Shown piece after piece: positions 17,559 to 36,205 of a stretch of DNA of 36,205 nucleotides (position 1 is its first letter; every line of letters begins with the position of its first letter). The notes beneath the pieces were generated by a model. That model was not told the origin of the DNA and did not search any database. It was given only the letters and a program-made list of their open reading frames with translations. The DNA is from a virus, in the IMG/VR virus record IMGVR_UViG_3300021256_000065, one strand, 5' to 3'. Position numbers and translations under genes: made by a program.

Positions 17559-17586
17559 TTTCAGCATCCTCCTAATAATTAAAAAA

Positions 17587-18918: not shown

Positions 18919-18999
18919 AATAAAATTCTCCTTTCATTCCCTCATATTTATATTAAAAATTTAGGCATTTTCTTTAACGGCTTTTGTCCAAAAAATTTT

Positions 19000-20580: not shown

Positions 20581-20600
20581 CTTTAGATACCTCTCCTTCT

Positions 20601-20957
20601 TTAATATCCAGCCGCCTCTAATATATAGTCATAATTTATTCTTGCTTCATCCCAATAGGGAATGATTACTAAATTGATTCCATGATCTCGACAATATTCT
20701 CTTTTTTTCATATCATTATATTGTTGTTTTCTTAAACCATTATATCCACCAAATTTTTCTTTAGCTTCATAATGTTGAATGCCTTGAAATTCAATAAGAA
20801 AATCAATATTATGCTAATCATCAAAAACCGCAAAATCAAATCTTAGCGGGCGGCCTGTATTACTTACTAAATCTGGAAAAGAGTATTCTTCTGCGAACTC
20901 TAATCCAGACTCTTGTAGAATTTCTTCTATTTTAATTTCTCCTCTAGATGCTCGCAT
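20601..20957 (-). CDS. small PD-(D/E)xK-type endonuclease (DUF559/Vsr-like fold) with one in-frame TAG
   Basis: Protein 'MRASRGEIKIEEILQESGLEFAEEYSF...GRPLRFDFAVFDD*HNIDFLIEFQGIQHYEAKEKF...' shows the pattern 'D...(I/L)EFxG..H' typical of DUF559 and Vsr nucleases. RBS 'GGAGAaaaaat'. TAA stop. Confidence 0.4.
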
Positions 20958-21018
20958 ATTTTTTCTCCTTCACTATATTATATAAAAATTTTATCTATAA
21001 AATTAATAAACTTTGACC

Positions 21019-24089: not shown

Positions 24090-24138
24090 AAAAGTCTCCT
24101 TTCTTCATTTTTTATTTTTAAAAAAATTCTTTAATGAA

Positions 24139-25242: not shown

Positions 25243-25274
25243 GAAATACTCCTTTCCGCTAATTCATTAATTAC

Positions 25275-25303
25275 ATTATACCAAAAAAATTTTCAAAAGT
25301 CAA
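25275..25303 (-). promoter_or_regulatory. Consensus sigma-A promoter driving the minus-strand morphogenesis operon
   Basis: Minus strand reads TTGACT-17bp-TGgTATAAT, about 30 nt upstream of the RBS and ATG at 25242. Confidence 0.55.
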
Positions 25304-25325
25304 ACGCGGCAATTGGATATTTTTA

Positions 25326-25354
25326 TTGATTTTTATTAAAAAATATTTTATAAT
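25326..25354 (+). promoter_or_regulatory. Divergent early promoter for the + strand operon 25382-27425
   Basis: TTGATT-17bp-TATAAT, followed by 'AAAGAAAGGTAT' and an ATG. Confidence 0.5.
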
Positions 25355-25381
25355 ATAATTATAAATAATAAAGAAAGGTAT

Positions 25382-25576
25382 ATGAATATGAAAGCAATAG
25401 CAAATTATAATATGGGCTTTGATAAGGGGACCTTTGTAAAAGGGAAAGCTTATAATTATAGGAGGGCTGATGAAGAAAATTCACAAAGATTTTTTATAAC
25501 AACAGAAGAGAATGCAGAACAAGAATTATGGGACACAGAATTTGATATATTATTTACTATAGAAGGAGAAGAGTAA
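25382..25576 (+). CDS. hypothetical early protein
   Basis: First ORF after the early promoter. Stops on TAA. Confidence 0.5.
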   Translation: MNMKAIANYNMGFDKGTFVKGKAYNYRRADEENSQRFFITTEENAEQELWDTEFDILFTIEGEE

Positions 25577-25578
25577 TT

Positions 25579-25944
25579 ATGGAAAATAATAATTGTCGTG
25601 TAACTACTGAATTTAAGGTAAATGCGGAGAAGCGAACTGTATTGTGTATTATAACTGCGATTAATGATGTACCAATTCGATTGGCAAAATATGGATTAGC
25701 AGATGAAGATTATGATAATATTGATTTTGATATTCGTATTTATAAGGGGATTGCGCGGTGCGCGCCTGAAGATACTTGGGATGAGTCTTATGGAAGGAAA
25801 TTGGCAGAGTATAGAGCATCTTGTGAACGCCGCACCGATGTTAATAATGAATTGAAAGCTTATATTAATGATATTTCTAGACGGATTGATAATCTTTATG
25901 ATTATGGCCTTATGAAAGATCCCCATATGCTGGAGGAGAAGTGA
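25579..25944 (+). CDS. hypothetical early protein
   Basis: 121-aa ORF closely packed with its neighbours. Confidence 0.5.
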   Translation: MENNNCRVTTEFKVNAEKRTVLCIITAINDVPIRLAKYGLADEDYDNIDFDIRIYKGIARCAPEDTWDESYGRKLAEYRASCERRTDVNNELKAYINDISRRIDNLYDYGLMKDPHMLEEK

Positions 25945-25971
25945 TGGTCGCCGCCATCACCTCTAATCACT

Positions 25972-26175
25972 ATGAAGAAAACATATTGTGATAGATGCGG
26001 AAAAGAAATTTATTATGATCCGCAGCAACAAGCTATTTTACCGACGTATAATATAAGTTATGCAACATATGGTATTTGTTATCAACCAAATCATTTTGAT
26101 TTATGTGGTAATTGTCAAAATGAATTTAATAATTGGATGGAAAAATGGTTAAAGGAAAAAAGAAATGAAAATTGA
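25972..26175 (+). CDS. small zinc-ribbon protein
   Basis: Motifs 'CDRCGKE...CGNC'. Its ATG region overlaps the next gene. Confidence 0.45.
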   Translation: MKKTYCDRCGKEIYYDPQQQAILPTYNISYATYGICYQPNHFDLCGNCQNEFNNWMEKWLKEKRNEN

Positions 26176-26497
26176 TGTAAAATATAATATAGGAGATAGT
26201 ATTCAATATATTGAAAAAATATCTCATTCAGTTTGGGGTCGTTGTCCATGCTGCGAGGGTGAAAAATATATTATTGGTGCAGATGGAGAACAATATGAAT
26301 GTCCTAAGTGTGATGGGAATGGTAAAGTGTACAAGAGAGATTTAAATGTTGAAGATGAAAAAACAGGAACAATAAAAAGTATTCATATTCATTATGATAG
26401 TGATATGGACTCTTATCATGGAAAACCAGATATTTATTACACCATTCCAAAAAATTTTCATCATATTCAACAAGACGATATTATTGGAAAAATATAA
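26165..26497 (+). CDS. small zinc-ribbon protein
   Basis: Motifs 'CPCCEGEKY...CPKCDGNGK'. Confidence 0.45.
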   Translation: MKIDVKYNIGDSIQYIEKISHSVWGRCPCCEGEKYIIGADGEQYECPKCDGNGKVYKRDLNVEDEKTGTIKSIHIHYDSDMDSYHGKPDIYYTIPKNFHHIQQDDIIGKI

Positions 26498-26811
26498 TGG
26501 CTGAATTTATTTTTACAAAAGAAAAAGTTGTTATGCCAGGAGAGAAGATAGGAATGATATTACAGAAACATACAATAGATGAAGTCCCACCCGCAGATAA
26601 AGAGCTATTAATGGTTATTGATATTGGGGCGGCAAATGAATATAATCTTTGGACGGTGGGAACTTGGGATGATGAACGTGGTTGGTGTTGTTCTTTTGAT
26701 GAAGTTGGATATACTGTTGTTGAATGGTATGAATTGCCGCCGCAAAAGAGAATAGTAGAAGATTATTCTTATCATCAGATGAGAATGGAAGAATTTTGGA
26801 ATGATAAATGA
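26497..26811 (+). CDS. hypothetical early protein
   Basis: The ATG overlaps the previous TAA as TAATG. Confidence 0.45.
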   Translation: MAEFIFTKEKVVMPGEKIGMILQKHTIDEVPPADKELLMVIDIGAANEYNLWTVGTWDDERGWCCSFDEVGYTVVEWYELPPQKRIVEDYSYHQMRMEEFWNDK

Positions 26812-27041
26812 AAAATGAGAAAATGTGGGAAAATATAAGTTTGCAAGAAATAATTAGGATGGCTTTTCCGCGGGGATGGGATAAAATAAGGTATTGGAAG
26901 CGAAAACCGCAGGCTTATACTTTAGAGAAGGCTCTTGAAACTTTGCAAACTATGTTGGCTACACAAGATATTAATTTAATGATAGATTGGGCATATAATG
27001 AATTTATTCCACCTTACGCGGTGCATAGTATAAAAAGATGA
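26808..27041 (+). CDS. hypothetical early protein
   Basis: ATGA overlap with the upstream gene. Confidence 0.45.
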   Translation: MKNEKMWENISLQEIIRMAFPRGWDKIRYWKRKPQAYTLEKALETLQTMLATQDINLMIDWAYNEFIPPYAVHSIKR

Positions 27042-27229
27042 GATTTATAGCAGAAGATAATCCAAATTTATATATTGATGTAGAAAATTACAGTGAATTA
27101 GAAAAAAAAATAAAAGAATTTGGAAATCCTAATTATAATTATGAAGTTATTTTTGAATTTCATGATCCTCGAATTGCGGGAAGAATAAAAGCAAATAAAA
27201 AAGGGGATAAGTATGGAAAGAATAATTAA
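27038..27229 (+). CDS. hypothetical early protein
   Basis: ATGA overlap with the upstream gene. Confidence 0.4.
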   Translation: MRFIAEDNPNLYIDVENYSELEKKIKEFGNPNYNYEVIFEFHDPRIAGRIKANKKGDKYGKNN

Positions 27230-27425
27230 AGGACGTTTTAAAAATAATGGAGAATATAAAGAAGAAGATAAATATACTCCTATTTTAAATAATGGTGCAG
27301 TTGTAGGTTTTATTGAATCAGTAGAAAAAGAAAATATAAATATTATATTGTGGGGAAAATGTATTTCTAAAGAATATTTATACGGTGAATCAGAGAATAT
27401 TCTTTGTTCAATTTCTTTTTGTTAA
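27213..27425 (+). CDS. hypothetical early protein
   Basis: RBS 'AAAGGGGATAAGT'. Stops on TAA. Confidence 0.4.
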   Translation: MERIIKGRFKNNGEYKEEDKYTPILNNGAVVGFIESVEKENINIILWGKCISKEYLYGESENILCSISFC

Positions 27426-27664
27426 GAGGGGAAGTCATTTCCTCGATTTAGAGAGGGAATCGCTTTTTCGATTCAAAAATACTTTTGGAGAGAGAAATGT
27501 GGTGGAGAAGATCAATTGTGAATTTTTTAACATTTTCATCCCAAAAAACACCCCCCGGTATAAACAAGGTATGGTCGCTAGCTTCGTTAAATAATTAACA
27601 GACCTGGCAAAAATACAGGCCCTAAATAAACATGAAAAGATATTAAAATATTTTAGAGTATTCT

Positions 27665-27727
27665 AAAAACACACTTTTAAAAAACATGTGAAAATAAATC
27701 ATTGCATGTTTTTAAGTGTGTTTTTTT
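27665..27727. repeat. Large imperfect palindrome: about 22-bp arms with a 16-nt loop and a T-run. It could be a terminator or a structural element.
   Basis: 'AAAAACACACTTTTAAAAAACATG' is followed 16 nt later by its near-reverse-complement 'CATGTTTTTAAGTGTGTTTTTTT'. Confidence 0.5.
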
Positions 27728-27855
27728 ATTGAAAATGAAAATGTGTTATTTTAAAAAAATGATTATTAATAAAAAGATTTTACTAATTGAGCGTTTCAAT
27801 AAATTAAAAAATGTATTAAAATAATGAATAGATAAAATATTAACAATGTTCATGT

Positions 27856-27930
27856 TTCTAATGTAGCGACTTTGTTAAAAAATTAACAAAGTTTGTAATG
27901 TAGCAACTTTGTTAAAAAATTAACGAAGTT
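27856..27930. repeat. Two 33-bp direct repeats (iteron-like), each containing the 22-bp palindrome CTTTGTTAAAAAATTAACAAAG. A third partial copy lies at 28166-28198.
   Basis: 'AATGTAGCGACTTTGTTAAAAAATTAACAAAGT' and 'AATGTAGCAACTTTGTTAAAAAATTAACGAAGT' start 38 bp apart. A region with AT content above 85% lies just upstream, at 27730-27855. Confidence 0.55.
27870..27891. promoter_or_regulatory. Palindromic operator-like site CTTTGTTAA-AAAA-TTAACAAAG, the strongest copy of this motif family
   Basis: Perfect 9-bp inverted arms around an AAAA centre. Confidence 0.5.
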
Positions 27931-28269
27931 AGAAGCTAACGACTTCTGTTGGCCACAACAAACTTTGACCAATTTTTATTTTTTGGCTTTAATAAAATGA
28001 GTTTACTAATTAGCAAAAGAACAGGATCAGATAGTAAACAGACTGTACTAATTAGACAATGTAGCGAATACTTCAATACACTAAAGTGTTAGAGAACTAA
28101 AGCAACAGCAGACGAAAGGCACACAAAGCGACTAAGTAATAACTGTTTACTATATTAATAAGAACTAATGTAGAAAGATTGTTAAAAAATTAACGAAGTA
28201 ATGATACTTACAGACTTAAAAACACTAAAAAGTAAATTCATTTTACAATATATTTTTTTCAAAAAAGTG

Positions 28270-28298
28270 TTGACTTTTTCCCGGACTTTTGATATAAT
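28270..28298 (+). promoter_or_regulatory. sigma-A consensus promoter (TTGACT-17-TGaTATAAT) for cassette ORF 28347
   Basis: Read directly. It is followed by the conserved leader 'CAAATCATCAAAGAGAGG'. Confidence 0.55.
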
Positions 28299-28346
28299 CA
28301 AATCATCAAAGAGAGGTACACAAAACAAGAAAGAGAGGATAAGGAA

Positions 28347-28610
28347 ATGAAAAAAGAGACTTGCGGAGTTGCTATAGAAAACAATCTGAAAGTAAATGCT
28401 TTCCATTACGTACCAGAAACAAAGGAAGAAGAAATCAAAGAAACCGAACAAACTATCGCATTCCTTAAGAATCAGTTGGCTGACTATGAAAAAGAACTCC
28501 AGGAAACGGTCAAGGCTCAAAGAAGAAGCGAAATCAGCTTCCACATCGACATGATTCAGAGGAGAATAAAATTTGAAGAAAAAAATCTTTTTTTCCAAAA
28601 AAACGCTTGA
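28347..28610 (+). CDS. hypothetical early cassette protein with coiled-coil character
   Basis: 87-aa ORF with RBS 'GAGAGGATAAGGAA'. The TGA stop overlaps the -35 of the next promoter. Confidence 0.5.
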   Translation: MKKETCGVAIENNLKVNAFHYVPETKEEEIKETEQTIAFLKNQLADYEKELQETVKAQRRSEISFHIDMIQRRIKFEEKNLFFQKNA

Positions 28611-28635
28611 CAAAAATCCGGTTCTCTATTATAAT
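28607..28635 (+). promoter_or_regulatory. sigma-A promoter TTGACA-17-TATAAT for the HAD hydrolase cassette
   Basis: Read directly. Confidence 0.5.
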
Positions 28636-28665
28636 AAAGATAACAAAAGAGAGGAGAACAAAGAA

Positions 28666-29106
28666 ATGACAAGAACAATCTTCTTCGATATGGATGGAAC
28701 AATCGCAGACCTTTACAAAGTAGACGGATGGTTGACCGACCTTATCAACAAAGATGTAAGACCTTACAGAGAAGCCAAAGTGATGCACAACATGCAAGTG
28801 CTTGCAAGACTTCTCAACAGACTTCAAAGGGAAGGAAACAAAATAGCAATCATCAGTTGGCTAGCAAAAAACAGCACAGAAGAATATGACGCAAGAGTAG
28901 CACAGACTAAAAAAGAATGGTTGAAAAAACATCTCACAAGCGTTAATTTCGATGAAATCCACATTGTAAAATATGGAACAAAAAAAGAAACATTCATTCA
29001 CACAGAAAACGACATTCTCTTCGACGATGAAGAGCAGAACAGAAACAACTGGACAGGAAAAGCTTACAACGTAAACAATATAATCGAAACACTGAAGAGC
29101 CTTTGA
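28666..29106 (+). CDS. HAD-superfamily hydrolase, 5'(3')-deoxyribonucleotidase-like
   Basis: The N-terminal 'FFDMDGTIAD' matches HAD motif I (DxDGT). RBS 'GAGAGGAGAACAAAG'. The ORF track start at 28573 reads through the promoter and is not used. A terminator follows at 29095-29121. Confidence 0.5.
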   Translation: MTRTIFFDMDGTIADLYKVDGWLTDLINKDVRPYREAKVMHNMQVLARLLNRLQREGNKIAIISWLAKNSTEEYDARVAQTKKEWLKKHLTSVNFDEIHIVKYGTKKETFIHTENDILFDDEEQNRNNWTGKAYNVNNIIETLKSL

Positions 29107-29308
29107 AAAGGCTCTTTTTTAATGCAGAATGTTAGTTATGACTAATTCTCGCGGCGAGCGAGATTGTTAAAAAAATAACAAACGCAGGCGGGCGCTTGAA
29201 GCCGAAAAATTTTATCACAGGTGGGTCGCACTTGTCAAGATGAAAAATTGCACAAAATAACAAATTAAATTTTTTCCCATTTTGTGCAATATTTTTTTCC
29301 AAAATGTG

Positions 29309-29337
29309 TTGACAAAAACCGGGTTATCGCTTATAAT
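29309..29337 (+). promoter_or_regulatory. sigma-A promoter TTGACA-17-TATAAT
   Basis: Read directly. 'CCGGG' occurs in the spacer. Confidence 0.5.
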
Positions 29338-29383
29338 TACATCAGAAACAAACAAGAGAGCTAAACAAAAGGAGGATAAAAAA

Positions 29384-29593
29384 ATGACAGGATACAAAGT
29401 TACAATGGAAATGAATGGAAGAAGAACCGACAGCTTTTCGGGATACATTAAAACAATGGAAGAAGCCAAAGATTATTGCGAATGGCTTGGTAAAGAAAAT
29501 GAACCGAAAATCATCACCTGCAACAAGAAAAGAATTACAAGATGGTTTAACTGGTATGAAACTAAAAAGGCATGGGAAAATCTTGAGGATTAA
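29384..29593 (+). CDS. hypothetical early cassette protein (69 aa)
   Basis: RBS 'AAAAGGAGGATAAAAAA'. Stops on TAA, followed by the hairpin 'GAGGATTAAAAATCCTC'. Confidence 0.5.
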   Translation: MTGYKVTMEMNGRRTDSFSGYIKTMEEAKDYCEWLGKENEPKIITCNKKRITRWFNWYETKKAWENLED

Positions 29594-29623
29594 AAATCCT
29601 CAAGATTTTTTTATTGCATCTGC

Positions 29624-29680
29624 ATTGTTAAAAAATTAACAAACGTCTGTTTGCATCTAGATTGTTAATTTTTTAACAAT
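29624..29680. promoter_or_regulatory. Two adjacent copies of the palindromic motif: ATTGTTAAAAAATTAACAAAC and TTGTTAATTTTTTAACAA
   Basis: Sites at 29624-29644 and 29663-29680, upstream of the promoter at 29768. Confidence 0.45.
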
Positions 29681-29767
29681 TTTCGCTGGACCGCGCACTG
29701 CCACATTGCACAAAGGGTCTTTTGTTTTTGAGATTTTTTTTGTGTATTTTTTTCTTCATGTAATAGG

Positions 29768-29796
29768 TTGACTTTTCCGGTTAAATAGCTTATAAT
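29768..29796 (+). promoter_or_regulatory. sigma-A promoter TTGACT-17-TATAAT with the conserved leader
   Basis: Read directly. Confidence 0.5.
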
Positions 29797-29842
29797 CAAA
29801 TCATCAAAGAGAGATAGACATCAAAAGAAAGGAAAAAACATC

Positions 29843-30028
29843 ATGACATTATTATTCGCAATCTCAACCGCAATCTTCATTATCAGCTCTTTTATCATTT
29901 TCATCTTCTCTTGGAAAATTACTGAAAAAACTCAAGACATCTTAAGAATTGTTGCTCTTGTTAGCGCAATAATGATAATCGTATCACTATTTATTTTTCC
30001 ATTTATTCAAGTATTTTTTTTAAAATAA
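29843..30028 (+). CDS. small membrane protein with two transmembrane helices
   Basis: Sequence 'MTLLFAISTAIFIISSFIIFIFSWKI...IVALVSAIMIIVSLFIFPFIQVFF'. Confidence 0.5.
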   Translation: MTLLFAISTAIFIISSFIIFIFSWKITEKTQDILRIVALVSAIMIIVSLFIFPFIQVFFLK

Positions 30029-30031
30029 TGA

Positions 30032-30060
30032 TTGACAATCTAGTCAATCTCTGTTATAAT
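30032..30060 (+). promoter_or_regulatory. sigma-A promoter TTGACA-17-TGtTATAAT
   Basis: Read directly. Confidence 0.5.
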
Positions 30061-30090
30061 CAAATTATCAAAAGAAAGGAGATATAAACA

Positions 30091-30222
30091 ATGAAAACTA
30101 CAAGAGGTTGGTACATCTTCAAGGACGGCACGCAGGCATGGTTCAATGGTCTCTCCGCAAGAGAGAAGAGGAACGAAGTCATAAAGCACGGCGAGATTGT
30201 CAAATTCATCCCCACACCTTGA
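30091..30222 (+). CDS. small basic protein (43 aa)
   Basis: RBS 'AAAGGAGATAT'. The TGA stop is followed by the terminator 'GAGGCTCtacatGAGCCTCTTTTTT' at 30221-30246. Codon usage is richer in GC than the neighbouring cassettes. Confidence 0.45.
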   Translation: MKTTRGWYIFKDGTQAWFNGLSAREKRNEVIKHGEIVKFIPTP

Positions 30223-30336
30223 GGCTCTACATGAGCCTCTTTTTTATGTGCAGAATATTGATACTTACATTAAACGTATTCAAAAGTTAAAAGTTGGTGA
30301 TTTTGATTGTTAAAAAAATAGCTTTCAAAAAAAGTG

Positions 30337-30365
30337 TTGACATTATTCCGGACATCTGATATAAT
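30337..30365 (+). promoter_or_regulatory. sigma-A promoter TTGACA-17-TGaTATAAT
   Basis: Read directly. Confidence 0.5.
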
Positions 30366-30395
30366 TAAATCATCAAAAGAAAGGAGATATAAAAA

Positions 30396-30647
30396 ATGTT
30401 ATACAGAATTGACAGAGAATTTGATGAATACATTGGTGCAGGAGAATACGAAACAAAAAAATATTATCAGTATGTATGTGGTTTACATAATGTTGGTAAA
30501 GCTTGCCTTGATACAGATGAGAACGATAGAATTGTTCGAATTGTAAAATTGAATTTTTCTATTAAAGGTTTGATTGTATGCTTGAAAAAAACTTGTTCTT
30601 CTCAGTATAATCAAACAAGTACAGAAAAATTTTCAAAAAAGTGTTGA
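30396..30647 (+). CDS. hypothetical early cassette protein
   Basis: RBS 'AAAGGAGATAT'. The stop overlaps the next -35. Confidence 0.45.
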   Translation: MLYRIDREFDEYIGAGEYETKKYYQYVCGLHNVGKACLDTDENDRIVRIVKLNFSIKGLIVCLKKTCSSQYNQTSTEKFSKKC

Positions 30648-30672
30648 CAAACCAGATGAAATATGATAATAT
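30644..30672 (+). promoter_or_regulatory. sigma-A promoter TTGACA-17-TGaTAATAT
   Basis: Read directly. Confidence 0.45.
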
Positions 30673-30701
30673 TAAATCATCAAAAGAAAGGAGAAACAAA
30701 A

Positions 30702-30878
30702 ATGAACGAAAGAGAAAAGCTTTTAGATAGGATGATTAGAATCTACGGTTTTGAACATGAACTGGTCATCGAGTTCGCGGGGATGATTGAAAACCCCAGC
30801 TATAAGACCGAAATCCTTGAAACCTTGGTGAGATGCCACGAGGCGTGCCCACAGATTACAGACAAAGAGGACCTATAG
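30702..30878 (+). CDS. hypothetical early cassette protein (58 aa). It ends on a TAG that lies in the loop of a terminator hairpin.
   Basis: RBS 'AAAGGAGAAAC'. The TAG at 30876-30878 sits within 'GAGGACCTATAGGCCCTCTTTTTC'. Read-through would add 59 residues across two GC-rich hairpins. Confidence 0.45.
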   Translation: MNEREKLLDRMIRIYGFEHELVIEFAGMIENPSYKTEILETLVRCHEACPQITDKEDL

Positions 30879-30925
30879 GCCCTCTTTTTCTATGTGCGGC
30901 GCGCTTTCTGCCGGCGCGCGCCGAA
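30867..30925 (+). terminator. Twin terminator: a hairpin plus T-run, followed by the GC-rich hairpin CGGCGCGC...GCGCGCCG
   Basis: Read directly. The same twin structure recurs at 31895-31953. Confidence 0.55.
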
Positions 30926-31117
30926 AAATCCATTCTATCATACCTGTCACCTTTTGTCAAGGGAAAAATTGCACAAATTTTCATCGAAATTTTATCCCAA
31001 AATTCGTCACTTTTTCAAAAGTGAAAAATCAGTCTTTTCTTGTTAAAATTTTGACAATCGCCTAAAAATGAAAAATCGGTGATTTTGATTGTTAAAAAAA
31101 TAACTTTCAAAAACATG

Positions 31118-31146
31118 TTGACAACCGGGCAGATTGGGTTTATAAT
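31118..31146 (+). promoter_or_regulatory. sigma-A promoter TTGACA-17-TATAAT (paralogous to the promoter at 32223)
   Basis: The -35 is 'TTGACAACCGGG'. The leader 'AAGGTTACAAACAAGGAAGGGAGA' is shared with the cassette at 32223. Confidence 0.5.
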
Positions 31147-31177
31147 AAGGTTACAAACAAGGAAGGGAGATCCACCA

Positions 31178-31645
31178 ATGAAGAAAATCAGCACTCTTAC
31201 CAATATCGAATACATGTTCGACCCGAACCGCTCCGGCGCTAAGTATACACTAGACGGCACACACTATATGAACAACGGAGAGTTTGCCGAAGTCGCTACA
31301 AAGGTGGCTCTTGGATATGAACCCCATAAGGATGCTAACACCGCATATAGCGAAGGGAGTGACATCCCTGAACTCCGAGCAAGCGTTAAATCCAGTAAAG
31401 CAACCTTAGTCAATATGAAACTTGCGGATGGATTTGAAGAGTCAATTGAAGTTTACTTCAAAAATACTCATAGCACTTGCTTCATCTACACCGTCCTTTT
31501 GGATGACATGACAACTCTCTATATAATGGACGCCGCTGAATTTAGAGAGTTCATCCACAGATTTGCTACCCTCAATGAGAGAGGCTTCATCCGCTTCAAA
31601 GCTACCAGCGGAAAGACGATCCAGTGGCTAGAGGAGAGGGTATAA
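31178..31645 (+). CDS. hypothetical early cassette protein (155 aa) with GC-rich codon usage
   Basis: The real ATG is at 31178, after 'AAGGAAGGGAGA'. The track ORF start at 31079 runs through the promoter and is not used. Confidence 0.5.
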   Translation: MKKISTLTNIEYMFDPNRSGAKYTLDGTHYMNNGEFAEVATKVALGYEPHKDANTAYSEGSDIPELRASVKSSKATLVNMKLADGFEESIEVYFKNTHSTCFIYTVLLDDMTTLYIMDAAEFREFIHRFATLNERGFIRFKATSGKTIQWLEERV

Positions 31646-31681
31646 ACCCTCTCCCCAACAAAATTTTTTCAAAATTAACAC

Positions 31682-31710
31682 TTGACAAATATTAAATCAT
31701 CTGTTATAAT
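31682..31710 (+). promoter_or_regulatory. sigma-A promoter TTGACA-17-TGtTATAAT
   Basis: Read directly. Confidence 0.5.
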
Positions 31711-31740
31711 TAAATCATCAAAGAACAGGAGAACAAAACA

Positions 31741-31896
31741 ATGACAAAAGAACAAATTAAAAACATGATGGAAGCAACAGGACAAAAACTTATTTATGAG
31801 GATGACTACAATCTTGAATATGAAAATCCTATGTATGGAGAAACTATTAATTTTGAATTTAACTCAGAAGGGTTATTCTATAAAATTTATAGCTGA
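31741..31896 (+). CDS. small early cassette protein (51 aa)
   Basis: RBS 'AACAGGAGAAC'. TGA stop, then the twin terminator. Confidence 0.45.
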   Translation: MTKEQIKNMMEATGQKLIYEDDYNLEYENPMYGETINFEFNSEGLFYKIYS

Positions 31897-31953
31897 GGGC
31901 GGAAGCCCTCTTTTTTATGCGCGGCGCGCTGGTGGCCGCACCAGCGCGTTTTT
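31895..31953 (+). terminator. Twin terminator: GAGGGCggaaGCCCTC plus T-run, then CGCGCTGGTGgccgCACCAGCGCG plus T-run
   Basis: Read directly. Confidence 0.6.
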
Positions 31954-32043
31954 CCATTGTACCATACCCATCGGGTTTTGTCAATTGACATTTTGCACAA
32001 ATTTTAATGCTAAAAATATCCTAAAATTCGTCATTTTTTCAAA

Positions 32044-32215
32044 AGTTAAAAATTGGTAGATTTCTTGTTAAAAATTTAACAATCGACTAAAAGTGAAAAA
32101 TCGGCAAAGTTCTTGTTAAACTTTTAACAATCTACCTACCACCCCTTGTTAAATTCTTAACAAGGGAAAAGTTAAAAATCGGCGGTTTTGACTTTGTTAA
32201 AAAAATAACTTTTAA
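32044..32215. repeat. Tandem array of four palindromic TTGTTAA-N4/5-TTAACAA sites, each preceded by a 'AAAGT(G/T)AAAAATYGG' half-unit. It lies directly upstream of the promoter at 32223.
   Basis: Palindromes at 32065-32082, 32113-32130 and 32144-32165 (CCTTGTTAAATTCTTAACAAGG), plus the half-site 32196-32211. A two-copy version of the same array sits at 31020-31100. Confidence 0.55.
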
Positions 32216-32222
32216 AAAGGGG

Positions 32223-32251
32223 TTGACAACCGGAGTAATAGGGCTTATAAT
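32223..32251 (+). promoter_or_regulatory. sigma-A promoter TTGACA-17-TATAAT
   Basis: 'TTGACAACCGGAG' plus the shared leader. Confidence 0.5.
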
Positions 32252-32282
32252 AAGGGTACAAACAAGGAAGGGGGACAACCTA

Positions 32283-32744
32283 ATGACTACCAACACCGCA
32301 CTCCACATCAATCTGATTGACCGCTACAATGCCGTTGCTTACACCCATGAGTATGTATGGGGCTTCACCTACAAAAAGAATGTCTATATGGCAATCACCG
32401 ACGCAACTGTGATGCCGTTCGTTACCTGCCTTGACAAGGCAAGCCGTGGTGCTGGATATGCACTCCGCTTCTGCCCCAACACTCAGCAGAAAATCGCTCT
32501 GCTTCCATATGCGACCCTCCTTTGCTCTGAAGCCTACTTCAATGAGGTAGTCGCCGATAGCAAGTATAATAAGGGCGAAATCTTTGAAAAAATGGTTACC
32601 GAACATTTCGGGCAGACTTGGGAAAAGGATAATGTCCCCTTCACAGAAGACGGCGATATCACAGTCAACGGTACTGCATATCAAATCAAGTTCCAGAAAG
32701 CCACCTTCTGCAACGAAAAGAGCATAGCCAACCTTGAAAAATAA
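32283..32744 (+). CDS. hypothetical early cassette protein (153 aa) with GC-rich codon usage
   Basis: ATG follows 'AAGGAAGGGGGA'. The track start at 32223 is spurious. Confidence 0.5.
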   Translation: MTTNTALHINLIDRYNAVAYTHEYVWGFTYKKNVYMAITDATVMPFVTCLDKASRGAGYALRFCPNTQQKIALLPYATLLCSEAYFNEVVADSKYNKGEIFEKMVTEHFGQTWEKDNVPFTEDGDITVNGTAYQIKFQKATFCNEKSIANLEK

Positions 32745-32785
32745 GGTTGGCTATATAGCCCGGGCGCTTGAAAAAAAATTTCATA

Positions 32786-32814
32786 TTGACATTTTAAAAA
32801 AACTATTGTATAAT
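32786..32814 (+). promoter_or_regulatory. sigma-A promoter TTGACA-17-TGTATAAT
   Basis: Read directly. Confidence 0.5.
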
Positions 32815-32841
32815 GTATATAGAAAGTGAGGGAAGAACAAA

Positions 32842-33102
32842 ATGAAAACTTTTATATTCGCTTTTTTCTTGACTATCGCAGGAATCATCGGAACATGGGA
32901 ATCTGAATATTCTAGACCCGTAATCTGCACCTACTATGACCCCTGCACTAATATTTCTACTTTCACAGACAATAGCGGGAATGATTGGGAATGGGAAAAT
33001 GAAAATGATGAAGTTTTTGAAATCGGAAAGTCCTATACCATCATCATGGATGATAATCATTCTTCTTCTATCTATGATGACATCATTAAAAAAATAAAAT
33101 AA
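32842..33102 (+). CDS. small protein with an N-terminal hydrophobic segment, either secreted or membrane-anchored
   Basis: 'MKTFIFAFFLTIAGIIG' followed by an acidic soluble part. RBS 'AGTGAGGGAAGAAC'. Confidence 0.45.
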   Translation: MKTFIFAFFLTIAGIIGTWESEYSRPVICTYYDPCTNISTFTDNSGNDWEWENENDEVFEIGKSYTIIMDDNHSSSIYDDIIKKIK

Positions 33103-33118
33103 AAAAATAAAAAACCTA

Positions 33119-33147
33119 TTGACAAACTAGAAAAGAAAGTTTATAAT
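33119..33147 (+). promoter_or_regulatory. sigma-A promoter TTGACA-17-TATAAT
   Basis: Read directly. Confidence 0.5.
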
Positions 33148-33178
33148 AGACTTATCAAAAGAAAGGAAGAAAAAAATT

Positions 33179-33409
33179 ATGACGAACGTATCCTATGATA
33201 TTTACCGCAACAATCAGAAAGTAAAAAATGTAACTACCTACGCTGAGGCGGTTGCTTCTGTTAAAGAGCTGGGCGGGCGCGGGACTTTCAAGACTGTTTA
33301 CACTAGCTTCAACCCCGAAGACACCGCAGAAAAGCGTGAATACGCCCATTCTCACGCTCAGAAAGTACATGAAGCGCTGAAGCGTAAAGCAGGGGTTAAG
33401 AAACATTAA
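33179..33409 (+). CDS. small basic protein (76 aa)
   Basis: RBS 'AAAGGAAGAAAAAAATT'. GC-rich codons. Confidence 0.45.
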   Translation: MTNVSYDIYRNNQKVKNVTTYAEAVASVKELGGRGTFKTVYTSFNPEDTAEKREYAHSHAQKVHEALKRKAGVKKH

Positions 33410-33457
33410 CCCCTGCACCCCCACAAATAAGAATACAATAGAAAGGAAGTAAAAAAA

Positions 33458-33679
33458 ATGAAAGTATCTATTAACTATTCAATTCCTGTTTCAGCGGTTA
33501 TTGTTTTTGATGAAATTTTCCGTTGTTCTGAACTGACTGACGGCTCTTATCCCCTGCAGAGATACATTGATAAAGCTGAAGAACTTATGCATATGTACGG
33601 TTTTGAATGGGCAGATATCATTGATGATGATGACGGTACTGTGATTGCTCAAATTGAAAGAGAGGACGATGATGAATGA
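33458..33679 (+). CDS. small, strongly acidic protein
   Basis: C-terminus 'ADIIDDDDGTVIAQIEREDDDE'. RBS 'AAAGGAAGTAAAAAAA'. It is co-transcribed with 33179. Confidence 0.45.
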   Translation: MKVSINYSIPVSAVIVFDEIFRCSELTDGSYPLQRYIDKAEELMHMYGFEWADIIDDDDGTVIAQIEREDDDE

Positions 33680-33765
33680 TACTAATGGTATTGTTGATGA
33701 TGACAGCGGCCTTCCTTATAGTTTTACTGAATGATGATGGCCCAAATAGACCGAGGTTTACATGA
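33676..33765 (+). CDS. 29-aa hydrophobic micro-ORF coupled by an ATGA overlap to the acidic protein gene
   Basis: 'MILMVLLMMTAAFLIVLLNDDGPNRPRFT'. Its stop lies in the loop of the terminator at 33749-33780. Confidence 0.25.
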   Translation: MILMVLLMMTAAFLIVLLNDDGPNRPRFT

Positions 33766-33820
33766 CCTCGGTCATTTTTCGCCCGGGTCGCATGTTAAAA
33801 AAATAACTAACAAAGACCGC

Positions 33821-33849
33821 TTGACATTCTTTTATTGTTTTGATATAAT
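33821..33849 (+). promoter_or_regulatory. sigma-A promoter TTGACA-17-TGaTATAAT
   Basis: Read directly. Confidence 0.5.
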
Positions 33850-33875
33850 CATTATCAGAAAGGAGATGTAACACA

Positions 33876-34367
33876 ATGAAATTTTTGAATGAAGATTTAC
33901 TTGTTTCCTTAGTAGATGATTTTCTTGAGCCTTTTGGCCTTGACTCAGATTTTTCAAGTGATTTTTCATACGACCCTGAAGATGAAAGAGTTTATTTTTC
34001 AATCGCTTTTTCTGAAAGGTCTGATAGACTTTTTAAAGAGTATGTTGAAAAAACTTTTCATTTCAATGTTCCACACATTTTTATGATTAGTTTGTTGCAT
34101 GAGGTTGGACATTTTTTCACCCTACATACATTTTCTAAAATGAGATTAGAAGCTGTCCACTCAGCAAAAAATCTCATTGAAGAAGCGTTAAAAATGGATG
34201 ACGATGATGAAATCTATTCTTTGTATTTTGATTTAAGCATCGAAAAGGTTGCAACGGCTTGGGCGGTTGACTATTACAGAAAAAACATGAAACGCTGTGA
34301 AGATTTTTATTCAAAGTTTGTAAATGCCCTTAGAACGGAATATAAAAGGCTGGGAGTGACTGAGTAA
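33876..34367 (+). CDS. putative zinc metallopeptidase (HExxH motif)
   Basis: 'ISLLHEVGHFFTLHTF' contains HEVGH. 163 aa. RBS 'AAAGGAGATGT'. Confidence 0.4.
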   Translation: MKFLNEDLLVSLVDDFLEPFGLDSDFSSDFSYDPEDERVYFSIAFSERSDRLFKEYVEKTFHFNVPHIFMISLLHEVGHFFTLHTFSKMRLEAVHSAKNLIEEALKMDDDDEIYSLYFDLSIEKVATAWAVDYYRKNMKRCEDFYSKFVNALRTEYKRLGVTE

Positions 34368-34424
34368 GTCACCCCTAACCGCCCGGGCAGCGAGATTGTT
34401 AAAAAAATAACTTTTAAAATGGTA

Positions 34425-34453
34425 TTGACATTTGTTCCTTTGTGTGGTATAGT
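34425..34453 (+). promoter_or_regulatory. sigma-A promoter TTGACA-17-TGgTATAGT
   Basis: Read directly. Confidence 0.45.
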
Positions 34454-34479
34454 ATAACCATGAAAGAGAGGTAAACAAA

Positions 34480-34821
34480 ATGGCTCGTAAAATTTTCTTC
34501 GCAAGAGATTGGGACAAAGTTGGTAGAAATTATTATGAAATTTATACCACTGTTTGTATGGGATATACTTTTACTGTTGGAAAAGGAATTGAAAGAGACC
34601 CGAACTTTTCTATCTTTTATGTAACTAATGATGGACAGCATGACCATTACGAAATCCTTAATGTTTACATTACTGCAGGCGATACCATCGAAGATACACA
34701 GAAAGGCGTTCTTACTACTCTCAAAAGAGAAATGAAAAGAGTTATTCAAAGAGGGTTGACAACTCGTGTAAAAAGTGGTATGCTTACTATAGAACAGATA
34801 GAAAGGTGGGTAACAAAATGA
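34480..34821 (+). CDS. hypothetical early cassette protein
   Basis: RBS 'AGAGAGGTAAAC'. Confidence 0.5.
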   Translation: MARKIFFARDWDKVGRNYYEIYTTVCMGYTFTVGKGIERDPNFSIFYVTNDGQHDHYEILNVYITAGDTIEDTQKGVLTTLKREMKRVIQRGLTTRVKSGMLTIEQIERWVTK

Positions 34822-34956
34822 CAAATTTAAAAGATTTTATGTTATTTCAAATAGGCTCCTATCAAGTTATGGGATTATTCAGTAAAAAAGCTGATACGAA
34901 ACTCAAACGTATTTTACATTATTTGCCTGTATTGATTATTAAGAAAGGATAACAAA

Positions 34957-35196
34957 ATGTATAAACTCTATTCAAGAATAAGTGACCATGAAACAATCCT
35001 TGAACTGTGGGGCGCATCAACCAAACATCCTGATAGCGTGTTTTTCTTTTCAGAATTTGAACCAAGCCCATGGTTTGACAGGATTGACCAAATTGTTCCT
35101 TGGCTTCTGGAATGCGCAAGCAAAATGAACTGGCCTATCCATTCTTACGAACTGGCAAAATGGGCGTGCATGATTTACGAGTCATGGCGCGGTTAG
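34957..35196 (+). CDS. hypothetical early cassette protein
   Basis: RBS 'AAGAAAGGATAAC'. Confidence 0.45.
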   Translation: MYKLYSRISDHETILELWGASTKHPDSVFFFSEFEPSPWFDRIDQIVPWLLECASKMNWPIHSYELAKWACMIYESWRG

Positions 35197-35218
35197 AATT
35201 AATGAAAGGAGATACATC

Positions 35219-35350
35219 ATGCAGGAACTTTTCGATCTTTTCTATCTCTATGATTACATGGTTATGCACACTGTTGATGAAGAATATGAGGAATACATAC
35301 ACCTGCGTCGTTACGTTGCAAAGCTGATTGAGGGGTTGGGGGCTGAGTAA
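35219..35350 (+). CDS. small protein (43 aa)
   Basis: RBS 'AAAGGAGATACATC'. The 3' end carries the shared element 'GGGGGCTGAGTAAGTCCCC'. Confidence 0.4.
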   Translation: MQELFDLFYLYDYMVMHTVDEEYEEYIHLRRYVAKLIEGLGAE

Positions 35351-35434
35351 GTCCCCACTAACTTTGCCGGGCGGCCCGTCGATTTACACAAAAGGATCCA
35401 TATTTTCAATTTGATTTTTGTGCAACATTACGTC

Positions 35435-35463
35435 TTTACAAATCAAGAAACCTTTGCTATAAT
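35435..35463 (+). promoter_or_regulatory. promoter TTTACA-17-TATAAT driving a roughly 170-nt transcript that carries only an 8-codon mini-ORF
   Basis: Read directly. Downstream are the hairpin GAGGGaaacaaaaagCCCTC and an RBS plus 'MRMPRDWI'. Confidence 0.4.
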
Positions 35464-35652
35464 CTAGTTACAAGGTGAGGGAAACAAAAAGCCCTCAAAA
35501 CTCAAAAGGGTTAGACAACAAGGCGCGCTGAGTCTAGCTTTTGGATTGAAAGGAGACAAGCAAAATGAGAATGCCGAGAGATTGGATTTAATCCCTTTGG
35601 CTGAGTAGGAATGCCACTGTATGATTTGTAAAAAATAAAAATAAAAAACCTC

Positions 35653-35681
35653 TTGACAAATAGGGCGACTTGTGGTATGAT
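35653..35681 (+). promoter_or_regulatory. sigma-A promoter TTGACA-17-TGgTATGAT driving a 6-codon leader ORF (MMKIKK) and hairpins
   Basis: 'AAAGGAGATAGATAAGCCC ATGATGAAAATTAAGAAATGA', then GCGCT...AGCGC and GGTAGCGGTGG...CCACC hairpins and an A7T8 tract. Confidence 0.4.
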
Positions 35682-35855
35682 CTAATCACAGGTTAAGAAA
35701 GGAGATAGATAAGCCCATGATGAAAATTAAGAAATGAGCGCTTAGACTTGGGCATGGAGCGCTATGACATAAATTAAAAGGACTTGTCCATGGTAGCGGT
35801 GGATTGGCCACCCACCGAACTACCGAAACTTAAAAAAATTTTTTTTAAAAAAAGC

Positions 35856-35884
35856 TTGACAACTGAATAAGGAACTGATATAAT
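35856..35884 (+). promoter_or_regulatory. sigma-A promoter TTGACA-17-TGaTATAAT with the conserved leader
   Basis: Read directly. Confidence 0.5.
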
Positions 35885-35933
35885 AAAATCATCAAAAAGA
35901 TAAACAAATCATTTAAAAAAGGAGATGTATACT

Positions 35934-36205
35934 ATGACAAAACTTACCTACGCTATGGCTATCGACTTCGCAACCGCAATCATCACCAATGGAACTGCTG
36001 ATTTCAACGGCTTCTCCGCTGATGAGTACCTTGAGAAGCTGGAGTCCCTCAAGGCTTCCCTTGCAAGACGCAACGGCAGTGAGAGAAAACCCACCAAGAC
36101 CCAGCAGGCAAATGAGGGTCTGAAAGAAGATATGTGGGCTTACGTTTCTGAGAATGGCGCAAAGCGTGCCAATGAGGTCGCTGAACACTTATCTTCTTTC
36201 AGACC
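35934..36205 (+). CDS. hypothetical early cassette protein, 3'-partial (runs off the window), with GC-rich codon usage
   Basis: ATG follows 'AAAAGGAGATGTATACT'. The frame is open to the window end. It is not in the ORF track because it has no stop. Confidence 0.5.
   Translation, partial: MTKLTYAMAIDFATAIITNGTADFNGFSADEYLEKLESLKASLARRNGSERKPTKTQQANEGLKEDMWAYVSENGAKRANEVAEHLSSFR

Follow-up and report, generated by a model that had tools for sequence, protein, structure and literature searches.

A probable hyperplastic early-gene region of individually promoted small genes in an uncultured TAG-recoded phage

Promoters, genes and terminators of the array

The stretch of viral DNA analysed here (IMG/VR virus record IMGVR_UViG_3300021256_000065; 36,205 nucleotides, hereafter the window) ends in an array of small plus-strand genes, most of which are headed by a near-consensus sigma-A promoter of their own. 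A first-pass annotation, made from the letters alone, had placed this array at 28260–36205 and described it as about 18 self-contained cassettes, each with promoter, leader, small open reading frame (ORF) and terminator. The span is real, but the array runs past the end of the window, and in a close relative (locus L008) it continues for at least 4.7 kb further, to a length of more than 12 kb. All 17 annotated promoters were recovered by a consensus scan as well as by a separate scan of our own, and all 17 lie on the plus strand with a median spacing of 466 bp (perfect, TTGACA-17-TATAAT; TGn, extended –10):

28270–28298, plus strand: promoter, TTGACT-17-TATAAT, TGn, one mismatch; leader CAAATCATCAAAG
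28607–28635, plus strand: promoter, perfect; drives the HAD gene
29309–29337, plus strand: promoter, perfect; left edge of a cassette missing from L008
29768–29796, plus strand: promoter, TTGACT-17-TATAAT, one mismatch; right edge of the cassette missing from L008
30032–30060, plus strand: promoter, perfect, TGn
30337–30365, plus strand: promoter, perfect, TGn
30644–30672, plus strand: promoter, TTGACA-17-TAATAT (10/12), TGn; –35 overlaps the stop codon of the preceding gene
31118–31146, plus strand: promoter, perfect
31682–31710, plus strand: promoter, perfect, TGn
32223–32251, plus strand: promoter, perfect; drives F4
32786–32814, plus strand: promoter, perfect
33119–33147, plus strand: promoter, perfect
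33821–33849, plus strand: promoter, perfect, TGn
34425–34453, plus strand: promoter, TTGACA-17-TATAGT, TGn, one mismatch; heads a four-gene operon
35435–35463, plus strand: promoter, TTTACA-17-TATAAT, one mismatch; downstream ORF of 8 codons, not real
35653–35681, plus strand: promoter, TTGACA-17-TATGAT, one mismatch; downstream ORF of 6 codons only
35856–35884, plus strand: promoter, perfect, TGn; drives the F0 winged-helix gene

The density of strong promoters proved as unusual as annotated, with 11 of the 17 promoters being perfect, five carrying one mismatch and one carrying two, whereas the other 28 kb of the window hold a single perfect promoter (9361, minus strand). From base composition, 0.0024 perfect sites would be expected per strand, and none of 300 first-order Markov simulations of the array region contained any perfect promoter. 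The extended –10 motif, which had been called usual, is indeed present in 9 of 16 window promoters.

Between the end of the –10 box and the ATG lie 26–48 nt (mostly 29–31), and a Shine-Dalgarno (SD) element precedes each of the 18 complete ORFs, in keeping with the strong ribosome binding sites of the earlier description. The SD element of the leader, AGAAAGGAG, is presumably complementary to the 3′ end of the Bacillota 16S rRNA. A common leader, AAATCATCAAA(A)G, follows seven to eight of the 17 promoters (repeat families D1/D2), and it was thus fair to say that many of them share it.

When the HAD protein encoded at 28666–29106 was used as a query, 31 related IMG/VR loci were retrieved (at most 20 kb each, on contigs of up to 181 kb). 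Families (F0, F1 and so on) were obtained by clustering the 1,043 predicted plus-strand ORFs of these 31 loci and the window (32 sequences), and the array was found to contain the following genes (lengths in amino acids, aa):

28347–28610, plus strand: ORF of 87 aa, F86; coiled-coil-like, otherwise in L008 only
28666–29106, plus strand: ORF of 146 aa, F1, HAD/NT5C 5′-deoxyribonucleotidase; in all 31 loci, which were retrieved with it
29384–29593, plus strand: ORF of 69 aa, singleton; cassette missing from L008
29843–30028, plus strand: ORF of 61 aa, F87; two hydrophobic segments
30091–30222, plus strand: ORF of 43 aa
30396–30647, plus strand: ORF of 83 aa, F88; also in L024
30702–30878, plus strand: ORF of 58 aa, F10; 12 loci, TAG stop
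31178–31645, plus strand: ORF of 155 aa, F27; 5 loci, no Pfam or PHROG match
31741–31896, plus strand: ORF of 51 aa
32283–32744, plus strand: ORF of 153 aa, F4; 17 loci
32842–33102, plus strand: ORF of 86 aa, F5; 17 loci, N-terminal hydrophobic segment
33179–33409, plus strand: ORF of 76 aa, F6; 17 loci
33458–33679, plus strand: ORF of 73 aa, F28; acidic, without own promoter
33876–34367, plus strand: ORF of 163 aa, F11; 12 loci, HEVGH motif
34480–34821, plus strand: ORF of 113 aa, F36; first gene of the four-gene operon
34818–34952, plus strand: ORF of 44 aa; without own promoter
34957–35196, plus strand: ORF of 79 aa, F12; TAG stop, without own promoter
35219–35350, plus strand: ORF of 43 aa; without own promoter
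35934–36205, plus strand: F0 winged-helix gene, beta subtype, 5′ part (90 codons); cut by the window end, full-length copy at L008:15464–15832

Apart from the HAD protein, nearly all cassette proteins lacked a Pfam or PHROG match. The annotated HAD nucleotidase was identified by both collections as an NT5C-type 5′-deoxyribonucleotidase (PF06941, E = 2e-7; phrog_2643, E = 1e-12). Of the HExxH peptidase that had been proposed, the motif is present (HEVGH, in F11), and the match to a putative metallopeptidase family stayed below threshold (DUF4344, 17.9 bits vs. a cutoff of 29.6). F4 is the most conserved cassette and belongs to a much larger pool of proteins (1,431 clusters at 90% identity, nearly all metagenomic and none annotated); its confident predicted fold matched none of the solved structures, and a search against 50,697 phage records gave no match. 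F27 and F4 were considered as paralogs and are not detectable as such, and a related-locus search with the 155-aa F27 protein (31178) as query found nothing.

The last gene of the window belongs to F0, a putative winged-helix DNA-binding family that had escaped the first-pass annotation. It numbers 66 members in 25 loci, with one to four (typically three) paralogs per phage, and scores above threshold against the FaeA-like family PF04703 (23.2 bits vs. a cutoff of 20.7), with weaker matches to FeoC, MarR and TrmB; precomputed Pfam matches on related metagenomic contigs agree with this assignment. The F0 paralogs of L008 are encoded at 15464–15832, 18788–19144 and 19784–20122. In the relatives, F2 carries motifs that resemble those of a DEDD-type exonuclease and were not confirmed by Pfam. 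A second, diverged HAD 5′-nucleotidase cassette lies in the same array of L008 (17015–17311) and also in L014, L018, L023, L031 and L032, and F0, F2, F3 and F4 each recur as paralogs within single phages, indicating that cassettes duplicate as well as move.

It was clear that not every cassette possesses a rho-independent terminator of its own, as had been claimed. A canonical hairpin with U-tract is found in six to seven units only, following the genes ending at 29106, 29593, 30222, 30878, 31896 and 33679, with the one after 35350 being marginal; four units have a hairpin without U-tract, and no terminator was found at seven genes. The terminators are situated as follows:

29094–29121, plus strand: intrinsic terminator after the HAD gene, 10-bp stem and T-tract
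29579–29615, plus strand: intrinsic terminator, 12-bp stem and T7
30221–30249, plus strand: intrinsic terminator
30864–30924, plus strand: terminator, then a second GC hairpin, which is that of an antisense module (see below)
31895–31960, plus strand: double terminator (31895–31910 and 31923–31950), the second hairpin being that of an antisense module
33749–33783, plus strand: intrinsic terminator

Moreover, the ORFs at 33458, 34818, 34957 and 35219 have no own promoter and are part of one two-gene and one four-gene operon. The picture of self-contained cassettes therefore holds for the promoters and SD elements, but neither for a terminator in each unit nor for one ORF per promoter.

Conversely, the promoters at 35435 and 35653 head units (35435–35850) whose sole readable peptides are MRMPRDWI (8 aa) and, behind a strong SD, MMKIKK (6 aa). 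These two units folded no better than shuffled controls (z = –0.48 and –1.34, respectively) and had no Rfam match, and the idea that they encode structured small RNAs was dropped on account of these z scores. They may be decayed cassettes or encode micropeptides. Their 5′ start, ACAAGGTGAGGGAA, is also found in units of L001, L004 and L005.

Palindromes and convergent modules in the spacers

The spacers of the array and its lead-in contain an 18-bp palindrome, TTGTTAA-N4-TTAACAA, that had likewise been missed (six perfect and four one-mismatch copies; 14 copies with at most two mismatches vs. 1.24 expected in the window). It is referred to as Rex-type after the operator it resembles (see below):

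27600–28260, no strand: lead-in to the array, AT-rich (26% GC), non-coding, with three copies of a 37-nt unit (AATGTAGC.ACTTTGTTAAAAAATTAAC)
27872–27889, no strand: Rex-type palindrome TTGTTAAAAAATTAACAA, perfect
27909–27926, no strand: Rex-type palindrome, one mismatch; 37 bp from the 27872 box
28179–28196, no strand: Rex-type palindrome, one mismatch; 73 nt upstream of the –35 of the 28270 promoter
29164–29181, no strand: Rex-type palindrome, one mismatch; 127 nt upstream of the 29309 promoter
29625–29642, no strand: Rex-type palindrome, perfect
29662–29679, no strand: Rex-type palindrome, perfect, spacer TTTT; 37 bp from the 29625 box
31040–31057, no strand: Rex-type palindrome, one mismatch; 60 nt upstream of the 31118 promoter
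32065–32082, no strand: Rex-type palindrome, perfect, spacer AAAT
32113–32130, no strand: Rex-type palindrome, perfect, spacer ACTT
32146–32163, no strand: Rex-type palindrome, perfect, spacer ATTC; 59 nt upstream of the 32223 promoter

Only the 4-nt spacer differs from copy to copy (e.g., AAAA, TTTT, AAAT, ACTT and ATTC), with the half-sites staying fixed, as one would expect if a dimeric protein binds there. Within the 561 kb of non-redundant DNA analysed (window and related loci), GTTAA-N4-TTAAC occurs 37 times, as opposed to 0–2 times for any other spacing from N0 to N10, and is flanked by the dinucleotide TT in 64% of half-sites. The 31 loci yielded 30 boxes with at most one mismatch (vs. 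0.75 in shuffles), 29 of which are intergenic, and the box was found in 12 of the 31 loci, including L024 and L032, in which the main palindrome is a different one. The perfect boxes of the window are located 59–140 nt upstream of a –35 box without overlapping the promoter, and no box lies near 9 of the 17 promoters.

In the lead-in, a Rex-type box closes each 37-nt unit, and TTAATAAAA.GA.TTTACTAATT is likewise present three times. This lead-in, which is diverged in L008 despite flanks that are 98.7% identical, may serve as an origin or a packaging site, or for the loading of a regulator.

Five promoters are preceded by a further, degenerate element, called class B, that in each case ends exactly 11 nt before the –35 box. 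Next to the copies at 30307, 33792 and 34396, it occurs at:

31089–31106, plus strand: class B element TTGTTAAAAAAATAACTT; ends 11 nt before the –35
32194–32211, plus strand: class B element of the F4 promoter; kept together with this promoter in L044–L051

Even where a lineage has other palindromes, these elements accompany the F4 promoter; for this reason, the idea that their half-boxes are Rex-type sites was dropped, and class B was reread as what is probably the UP-like tract of one promoter family.

An unbiased palindrome search in the relatives revealed that other phages carry other palindromes. AGTTAGT-N4-ACTAACT is present in 26 copies in L024 and in 8 copies in L032 (6953–17026), TTAGACGT-N3-ACGTCTAA in 20 copies in L029 (6797–15819), and TTAGGTGTT-N-AACACCTAA in 27–28 copies in each of L033–L035 (2954–19875 in L033), while the region upstream of F4 in L039–L051 contains other repeats of GTTAA or CTAAAG type. 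These lineage-specific palindromes are found at about –55; in L033 and L029, where they are 19 bp long, they lie 9–20 nt upstream of the –35 box in almost every cassette, directly after the previous terminator. Such differences between related phages are typical of operator/regulator co-evolution.

Two observations on these spacers stand apart. About 21 of the L024 copies form a dense cluster in the 1.5 kb upstream of the array (L024:2650–4200), which could pass for a centromere or iteron array, or else for a regulator sink. Furthermore, a GC-rich element, GCCCGGGC (CCCGGG core), set in otherwise AT-rich DNA, occurs in the window at 32757–32768, 33780–33790, 34378–34390 and 35363–35375, and also beside each palindrome in L024 and L032, so that it is common to phages with different palindromes.

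As to what binds the palindromes, a phage-encoded protein, possibly an F0 winged-helix paralog, appears more likely from the sequences than the Rex protein of the host. The beta helix subtype of F0 (SGQK[AC]SALL), to which the last ORF of the window belongs, co-occurs with GTTAA-N4-TTAAC boxes (8/4/2/10 for subtype vs. box presence; Fisher p = 0.036, with relatedness ignored). L033–L035 have no F0, but instead encode F25, a family of the same build with a weak profile-profile match to F0 (E = 3.5e-4, probability 37%), which may be the binder of TTAGGTGTTNAACACCTAA in L033.

Finally, three near-consensus promoters on the minus strand, also absent from the first-pass annotation, each face the end of the upstream gene:

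29209–29238, minus strand: antisense promoter, TTGACA-18-TAAAAT, TGn; fires into a minus-strand hairpin and T-run (29198–29179)
30932–30960, minus strand: antisense promoter, TTGACA-17-TAGAAT, TGn, then a GC hairpin
31956–31984, minus strand: antisense promoter, TTGACA-17-TACAAT, TGn, then a GC hairpin

Those at 30960 and 31984 are among 38 non-identical instances of one conserved module in the window and its relatives (L008–L032); the promoter at 29238, with its 18-bp spacer, escaped the module scan. Approximately 35 of the 38 share the same build, i.e., a block AATTTTGGGATA...TTTGTGCA, TTGACA, an extended –10 and a start near GGAAATTTCG, after which follow a GC-rich hairpin, an A-run and then the terminator hairpin of the upstream gene. 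All 26 non-identical copies that were folded form a 7–12-bp hairpin (–12 to –30 kcal/mol) at the same position with at least six different stem sequences, suggesting that structure rather than sequence is conserved. RNAalifold returned no consensus structure for the module, with hairpin registers shifting between copies, and Rfam (E <= 1, 27.0–36.2 kb) gave two sub-threshold chance matches only and no family for the module. Possible roles are short antisense RNAs against mRNA 3′ ends, or convergent-transcription insulators that separate the cassettes.

Related loci, phage context and TAG recoding

A megablast of the region against the 50,697 phage records gave no match, and no near-identical GenBank phage was found. 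The exact promoter-leader string is present in seven IMG/VR contigs, while the promoter-leader pattern had no match in 185,579 bacterial species genomes. The same architecture recurs in all but the most distant of the 31 loci, where a single locus can hold as many as 25 perfect and 9 one-mismatch promoters; of 591 such promoters in 29 non-redundant loci, 79% have TGn, and a median of 31 nt separates the –10 box from the start codon.

The comparison that the first-pass annotation had proposed, i.e., of cassette presence, absence and shuffling between related phages, could be made in this set. L008 (on a contig of 133,873 bp) is 98.7% identical to the window backbone (18670–27557) and 91–96% identical in the array, yet lacks window positions 29390–29737 (one cassette) and approximately 30399–31910 (four cassettes). 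At the first of these junctions its promoter is chimeric, resembling the 29309 promoter upstream of the –35 box and the 29768 promoter from the –35 box onward, which points to a 459-bp cassette bounded from promoter to promoter and to a crossover in the shared UP/–35 sequence. A repeated intergenic block of some 250–380 bp (repeat families D11, D14 and D17) delimits the second indel. Among the 32 sequences, conserved syntenic cores (e.g., F9-F1-F6-F0 and F0-F0-F3-F2) are found next to variable gene order (F1 ... F4-F5-F6 in the window vs. F5 ... F4-F9-F1-F6 in L010–L017), and many cassettes are patchy or singletons, with several families being paralogous within one phage. Given these indels, the crossover at the –35 box and the shuffled order, the view of a modular, recombination-prone region comparable to that of T4 is well supported. 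About half of the large related contigs have the array at their end; repeats can also break assemblies.

Elsewhere in the window, between 0.2 and 8.6 kb on the plus strand, lie genes for a DNA polymerase III alpha and a guanylate kinase, as well as for NrdD, an anaerobic ribonucleotide reductase, and a formate/nitrite-transporter-like protein. The latter, a 186-aa membrane protein, directly follows NrdD (4014–6649), an unusual pairing for a phage of an anaerobe. The polymerase is 39–40% identical to those of SPbeta-like Bacillus phages (39% to YorL) and of 140-kb Enterococcus phages (EF1-like). A gene next to the structural side in L039 (2604–3812) matches Pfam YonG_N, an SPbeta family, and this match together with the YorL-like polymerase suggests a distant SPbeta-like ancestry of the clade.

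The portal protein is encoded by a 464-aa ORF on the minus strand (19096–20490), with Phage Phass-1 as its best named relative (38.6% identity). Since this relative is labelled 'code 15 clade', the window was tested for recoding. Two further modules frame the result:

8739–25263, minus strand: late module (portal, packaging, structural), readable only with TAG as sense
25382–27425, plus strand: polycistronic operon of 8 small overlapping ORFs, an ordinary layout in contrast to the array

With TAG as sense, the late module resolves into 15 packed ORFs covering 15.5 kb, vs. 7 ORFs covering 6.5 kb under the standard code, and reassigning TGA or TAA in 8739–25263 gave no comparable gain. The 50 in-frame TAGs are distributed over 10 of the 15 late ORFs, none of which ends in TAG. 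The plus-strand modules are unchanged under TAG reassignment, and the array has no in-frame TAG, with two of its 18 genes stopping at TAG. No tRNAs were found in the window, and hence no suppressor tRNA(CUA) within these 36 kb; some recoded phages lack one (PMC10607447). Recoding is reportedly characteristic of late genes (PMC10607447; bioRxiv 10.1101/2021.08.26.457843). The window thus resembles the code 15 phages (TAG read as Gln), including Phassvirus phAss-1 (PMC10607447), in having in-frame TAGs in late, structural and packaging genes and standard code in its other modules, whereas neither boxes nor an array of consensus promoters were seen in the 41 kb of Phass-1 that were examined.

The late module is itself headed by a near-consensus sigma-A promoter (25275–25303, minus strand; TTGAC[T/A]-17-TATAAT, TGn), with an SD and an ATG at approximately 25242, that is conserved in the relatives (L010:714, L012:4564, L014:1940, L016:1896 and L017:4926). 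The module could consequently be transcribed by the host polymerase from the start, yet be untranslatable until TAG is suppressed.

The sources of the relatives include samples of the series SHIW14...METAG and 'Rumen' or 'ruminal' metagenome-assembled genomes (MAGs), with portal relatives lying on phage-sized contigs of 139,570 and 139,594 bp that were binned into MAGs. The promoter type and a GC content of about 31–35% suggest a low-GC Bacillota host. The window probably belongs to an uncultured, TAG-recoded rumen or gut phage of some 130–190 kb with such a host, distantly related to SPbeta-like phages and to Phassvirus.

Interpretation and rival readings

Taken together, we regard the array as a hyperplastic early-gene region of an uncultured TAG-recoded Bacillota phage with a second operator layer in its spacers, a reading to which we assign a probability of about 0.72. 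According to this reading, nearly every small gene would form its own unit with UP-like tract, sigma-A promoter, leader of about 30 nt (–10 to start codon) and SD, and about half of the units with a terminator. The host-type promoters and SD elements would allow unmodified host RNA polymerase and ribosomes to express every cassette strongly and simultaneously upon DNA entry, without any need for a phage factor. The late module is untranslatable until TAG is read as sense, while the array genes are written in the standard code; this code contrast lends independent, if indirect, support to array expression before that of the structural genes, and so to the early timing that the first-pass annotation had suggested. 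The comparison with the relatives shows that the repeated promoters, leaders and intergenic blocks double as recombination homology, through which cassettes are gained, lost and reordered. A phage DNA-binding protein on the palindromes, possibly an F0 paralog, might then modulate or shut off early transcription.

A number of points weigh against this reading. The early timing itself is deduced from sequence, and since the recoded late module has a sigma-A promoter as well, promoter type alone does not set timing. With canonical terminators in only about half of the units, polycistronic read-through transcripts are likely. As to the operator layer, L029 and L032 have the same F0 helix with different palindromes, and a one-to-one relation between F0 recognition-helix subtype and palindrome type was sought and not found. 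The MAG labels clash (Erysipelotrichaceae, Acholeplasmatales, Bacilli, Lachnospiraceae, Endomicrobiaceae and a Bacteroidaceae genus), and host assignment from these bins was rejected as unreliable because of these contradictions. The cassette proteins, finally, are no more than candidates for host takeover or anti-defence.

Comparison with known systems supports analogy rather than descent. T4-type phages carry promoter(early)-stem-loop (PeSL) cassettes in hyperplastic regions (Arbiol 2010, PMC2839356; Comeau 2014, PMC4122927), in which stem-loop terminators and, as here, strong host-sigma promoters flank small, mostly ORFan genes, and relatives differ by indel or replacement of whole cassettes via repeated regulatory elements (here the window vs. 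L008). T4-like phages are, however, Gram-negative myoviruses, whereas the present phage looks siphovirus-like and SPbeta/Phass-like with a Bacillota host; its shared homology takes in the transcribed leader and SD, only about half of its units have a canonical terminator, and palindromic operators and convergent antisense promoters come in addition. Because polymerase and portal are nearest to SPbeta-like, Enterococcus EF1-like and Phass-1 phages, the array is an analogue and not a member of the T4 PeSL group.

A closer Firmicute analogue, not considered by the first-pass annotation, appears to be the host-takeover module of SPO1, a cluster of about 24–26 small early genes that acts in host shut-off and is rich in strong sigma-A promoters, with strong ribosome binding sites (PMC6873191). 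The likeness lies in a Firmicute phage having such a gene cluster with such promoters and binding sites; no homology to SPO1 gp37–60 was detected (no informative PHROG or Pfam match apart from the HAD protein). The SPO1 module, moreover, sits in the terminal redundancy, neither per-cassette palindromes nor a recoded genome have been reported for it, and the present array is longer (>12 kb, with 20–34 promoters per locus in the relatives). The resemblance to T5 that had been noted is partial: T5-like phages have a 5′-deoxyribonucleotidase among their presumed pre-early host-shutdown genes (PMC4319617), and the NT5C-type nucleotidase that is the conserved anchor of the array parallels this T5 gene (dmp); no A1 or A2 homologs were found. 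The array is thus analogous to the T4 PeSL cassettes and the SPO1 module and homologous to neither, in a clade that is undescribed, abundant and TAG-recoded. New beyond these known kinds is the grammar of its spacers, i.e., lineage-specific palindromes, one of them of Rex-operator type, and convergent promoter-hairpin modules.

For the palindromes of the window, a host protein could be invoked instead. Two papers (PMC5367854, PMC9600882, both citing Ravcheev 2012) give the Clostridiaceae Rex-box consensus as TTGTTAANNNNTTAACAA, and the window boxes (TTGTTAA-N4-TTAACAA) are identical to it, including the strict N4 spacing with unconstrained spacer sequence; the TT flank in 64% of half-sites agrees as well. 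The six perfect and four one-mismatch boxes of the window compare with 27 predicted Rex sites, many of them degenerate, in one whole clostridial genome (PMC9600882). Host Rex bound to these boxes would either gate some of the early genes by the NADH/NAD+ ratio or be titrated off host operators, and the low-copy recurrence of the box in 12 of the 31 diverged loci, L024 and L032 among them, fits a conserved host factor, while its placement outside the promoters suits a decoy. Even so, we deem binding by host Rex unlikely. Unlike the clostridial operator, the boxes are clustered on phage DNA and mostly lie 59–140 nt ahead of the –35 instead of covering the promoter, which is a poor position for classical repression; the equivalent slot in relatives holds unrelated palindromes, which argues for a fast-evolving phage binder; many relatives have no box at all; and the host may be other than Clostridium. 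Other Bacillota Rex proteins, moreover, prefer TTGTGAA.

A tblastn search of the window and related loci found no Rex homolog, though this result is weak evidence; a literature search, which was not exhaustive, found no report of Rex boxes in a phage. That the boxes constitute Rex operators serving the phage as a redox device, be it sensor or decoy, is rather improbable. If true, a sensor would have Rex, at low NADH/NAD+, hold back part of the early programme on the incoming DNA, whereas a decoy would strip Rex from host operators and thereby derepress fermentative NAD+-regenerating pathways that fuel the phage; the same intergenic slot would then have been re-tooled in relatives for other DNA-binding proteins.

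Alternatively, the phage could be temperate and SPbeta-like, with a master repressor on the palindromes that silences the array in the lysogen and releases it on induction; the array would then not be a lytic host-takeover module in particular. In SPbeta, a repeated 15-bp motif (SPBRE) in promoter regions is bound by the recombinase-fold repressor MrpR (PMC10516654). Like SPBRE, the present palindromes are repeated in many intergenic and promoter regions of a large Bacillota phage, and SPbeta-like genes are shared, i.e., the polymerase (39% to YorL) and the YonG_N neighbour; the phAss-1 group also clusters near Spbetavirus (PMC10607447), and in L033 and L029 a palindrome lies beside the promoter in nearly every cassette. 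The palindromes are, however, 18–19 bp long, lineage-dependent and far more numerous (20–28 per locus in L029 and L033–L035), and no integrase, recombinase-fold repressor or helix-turn-helix (HTH) repressor was found among the window ORFs tested, with Pfam on 28 further window ORFs revealing no HTH, Rex or integrase domain (the window being 36 kb of a genome of ~134 kb or larger). Together with the absence of the promoter-leader pattern from 185,579 species genomes, the stand-alone nature of the MAG relatives (~139.6 kb contigs without visible host flanks) and the 9 of 17 window promoters without a nearby box, this renders a lysogenic switch doubtful.

Far less probable still is that the promoter series primarily serves genome entry, with the ORFs being secondary. 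At the T7 promoters A1–A3, host polymerase pulls the DNA into the cell, and 17 promoters pointing in the same direction at intervals of about 470 bp across 8 kb or more (12 kb or more in L008) would suit such a role; nevertheless, diverged phages have kept the ORFs as protein families, strong SD elements precede the ORFs, terminators interrupt transcription, and the convergent antisense promoters would oppose pulling. Lastly, while the region is AT-rich (33–40% GC) and loose promoter-like matches are frequent everywhere, a chance product or artefact is already refuted by statistics and conservation, i.e., by 11 perfect sites vs. 0.0024 expected and none in 300 simulations, all on one strand and each 26–48 nt ahead of an SD and ATG, in an architecture that recurs in 31 independent contigs.

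As a hyperplastic early-gene region, the array would extend the T4 principle of mobile regulatory cassettes to an abundant clade of uncultured rumen and gut Bacillota phages. It would also tell where to look in such phages for their pool of early, host-directed genes, namely at consensus promoters in standard-code DNA. With its array in standard code and its late module TAG-recoded, the window would be a clean natural example of the idea that late-gene translation is timed by recoding. The palindromes and antisense modules suggest a hitherto undescribed layer of control over early transcription, and the cassettes themselves constitute a large reservoir of small uncharacterised proteins, some with new folds, that are natural candidates for takeover and anti-defence screens.

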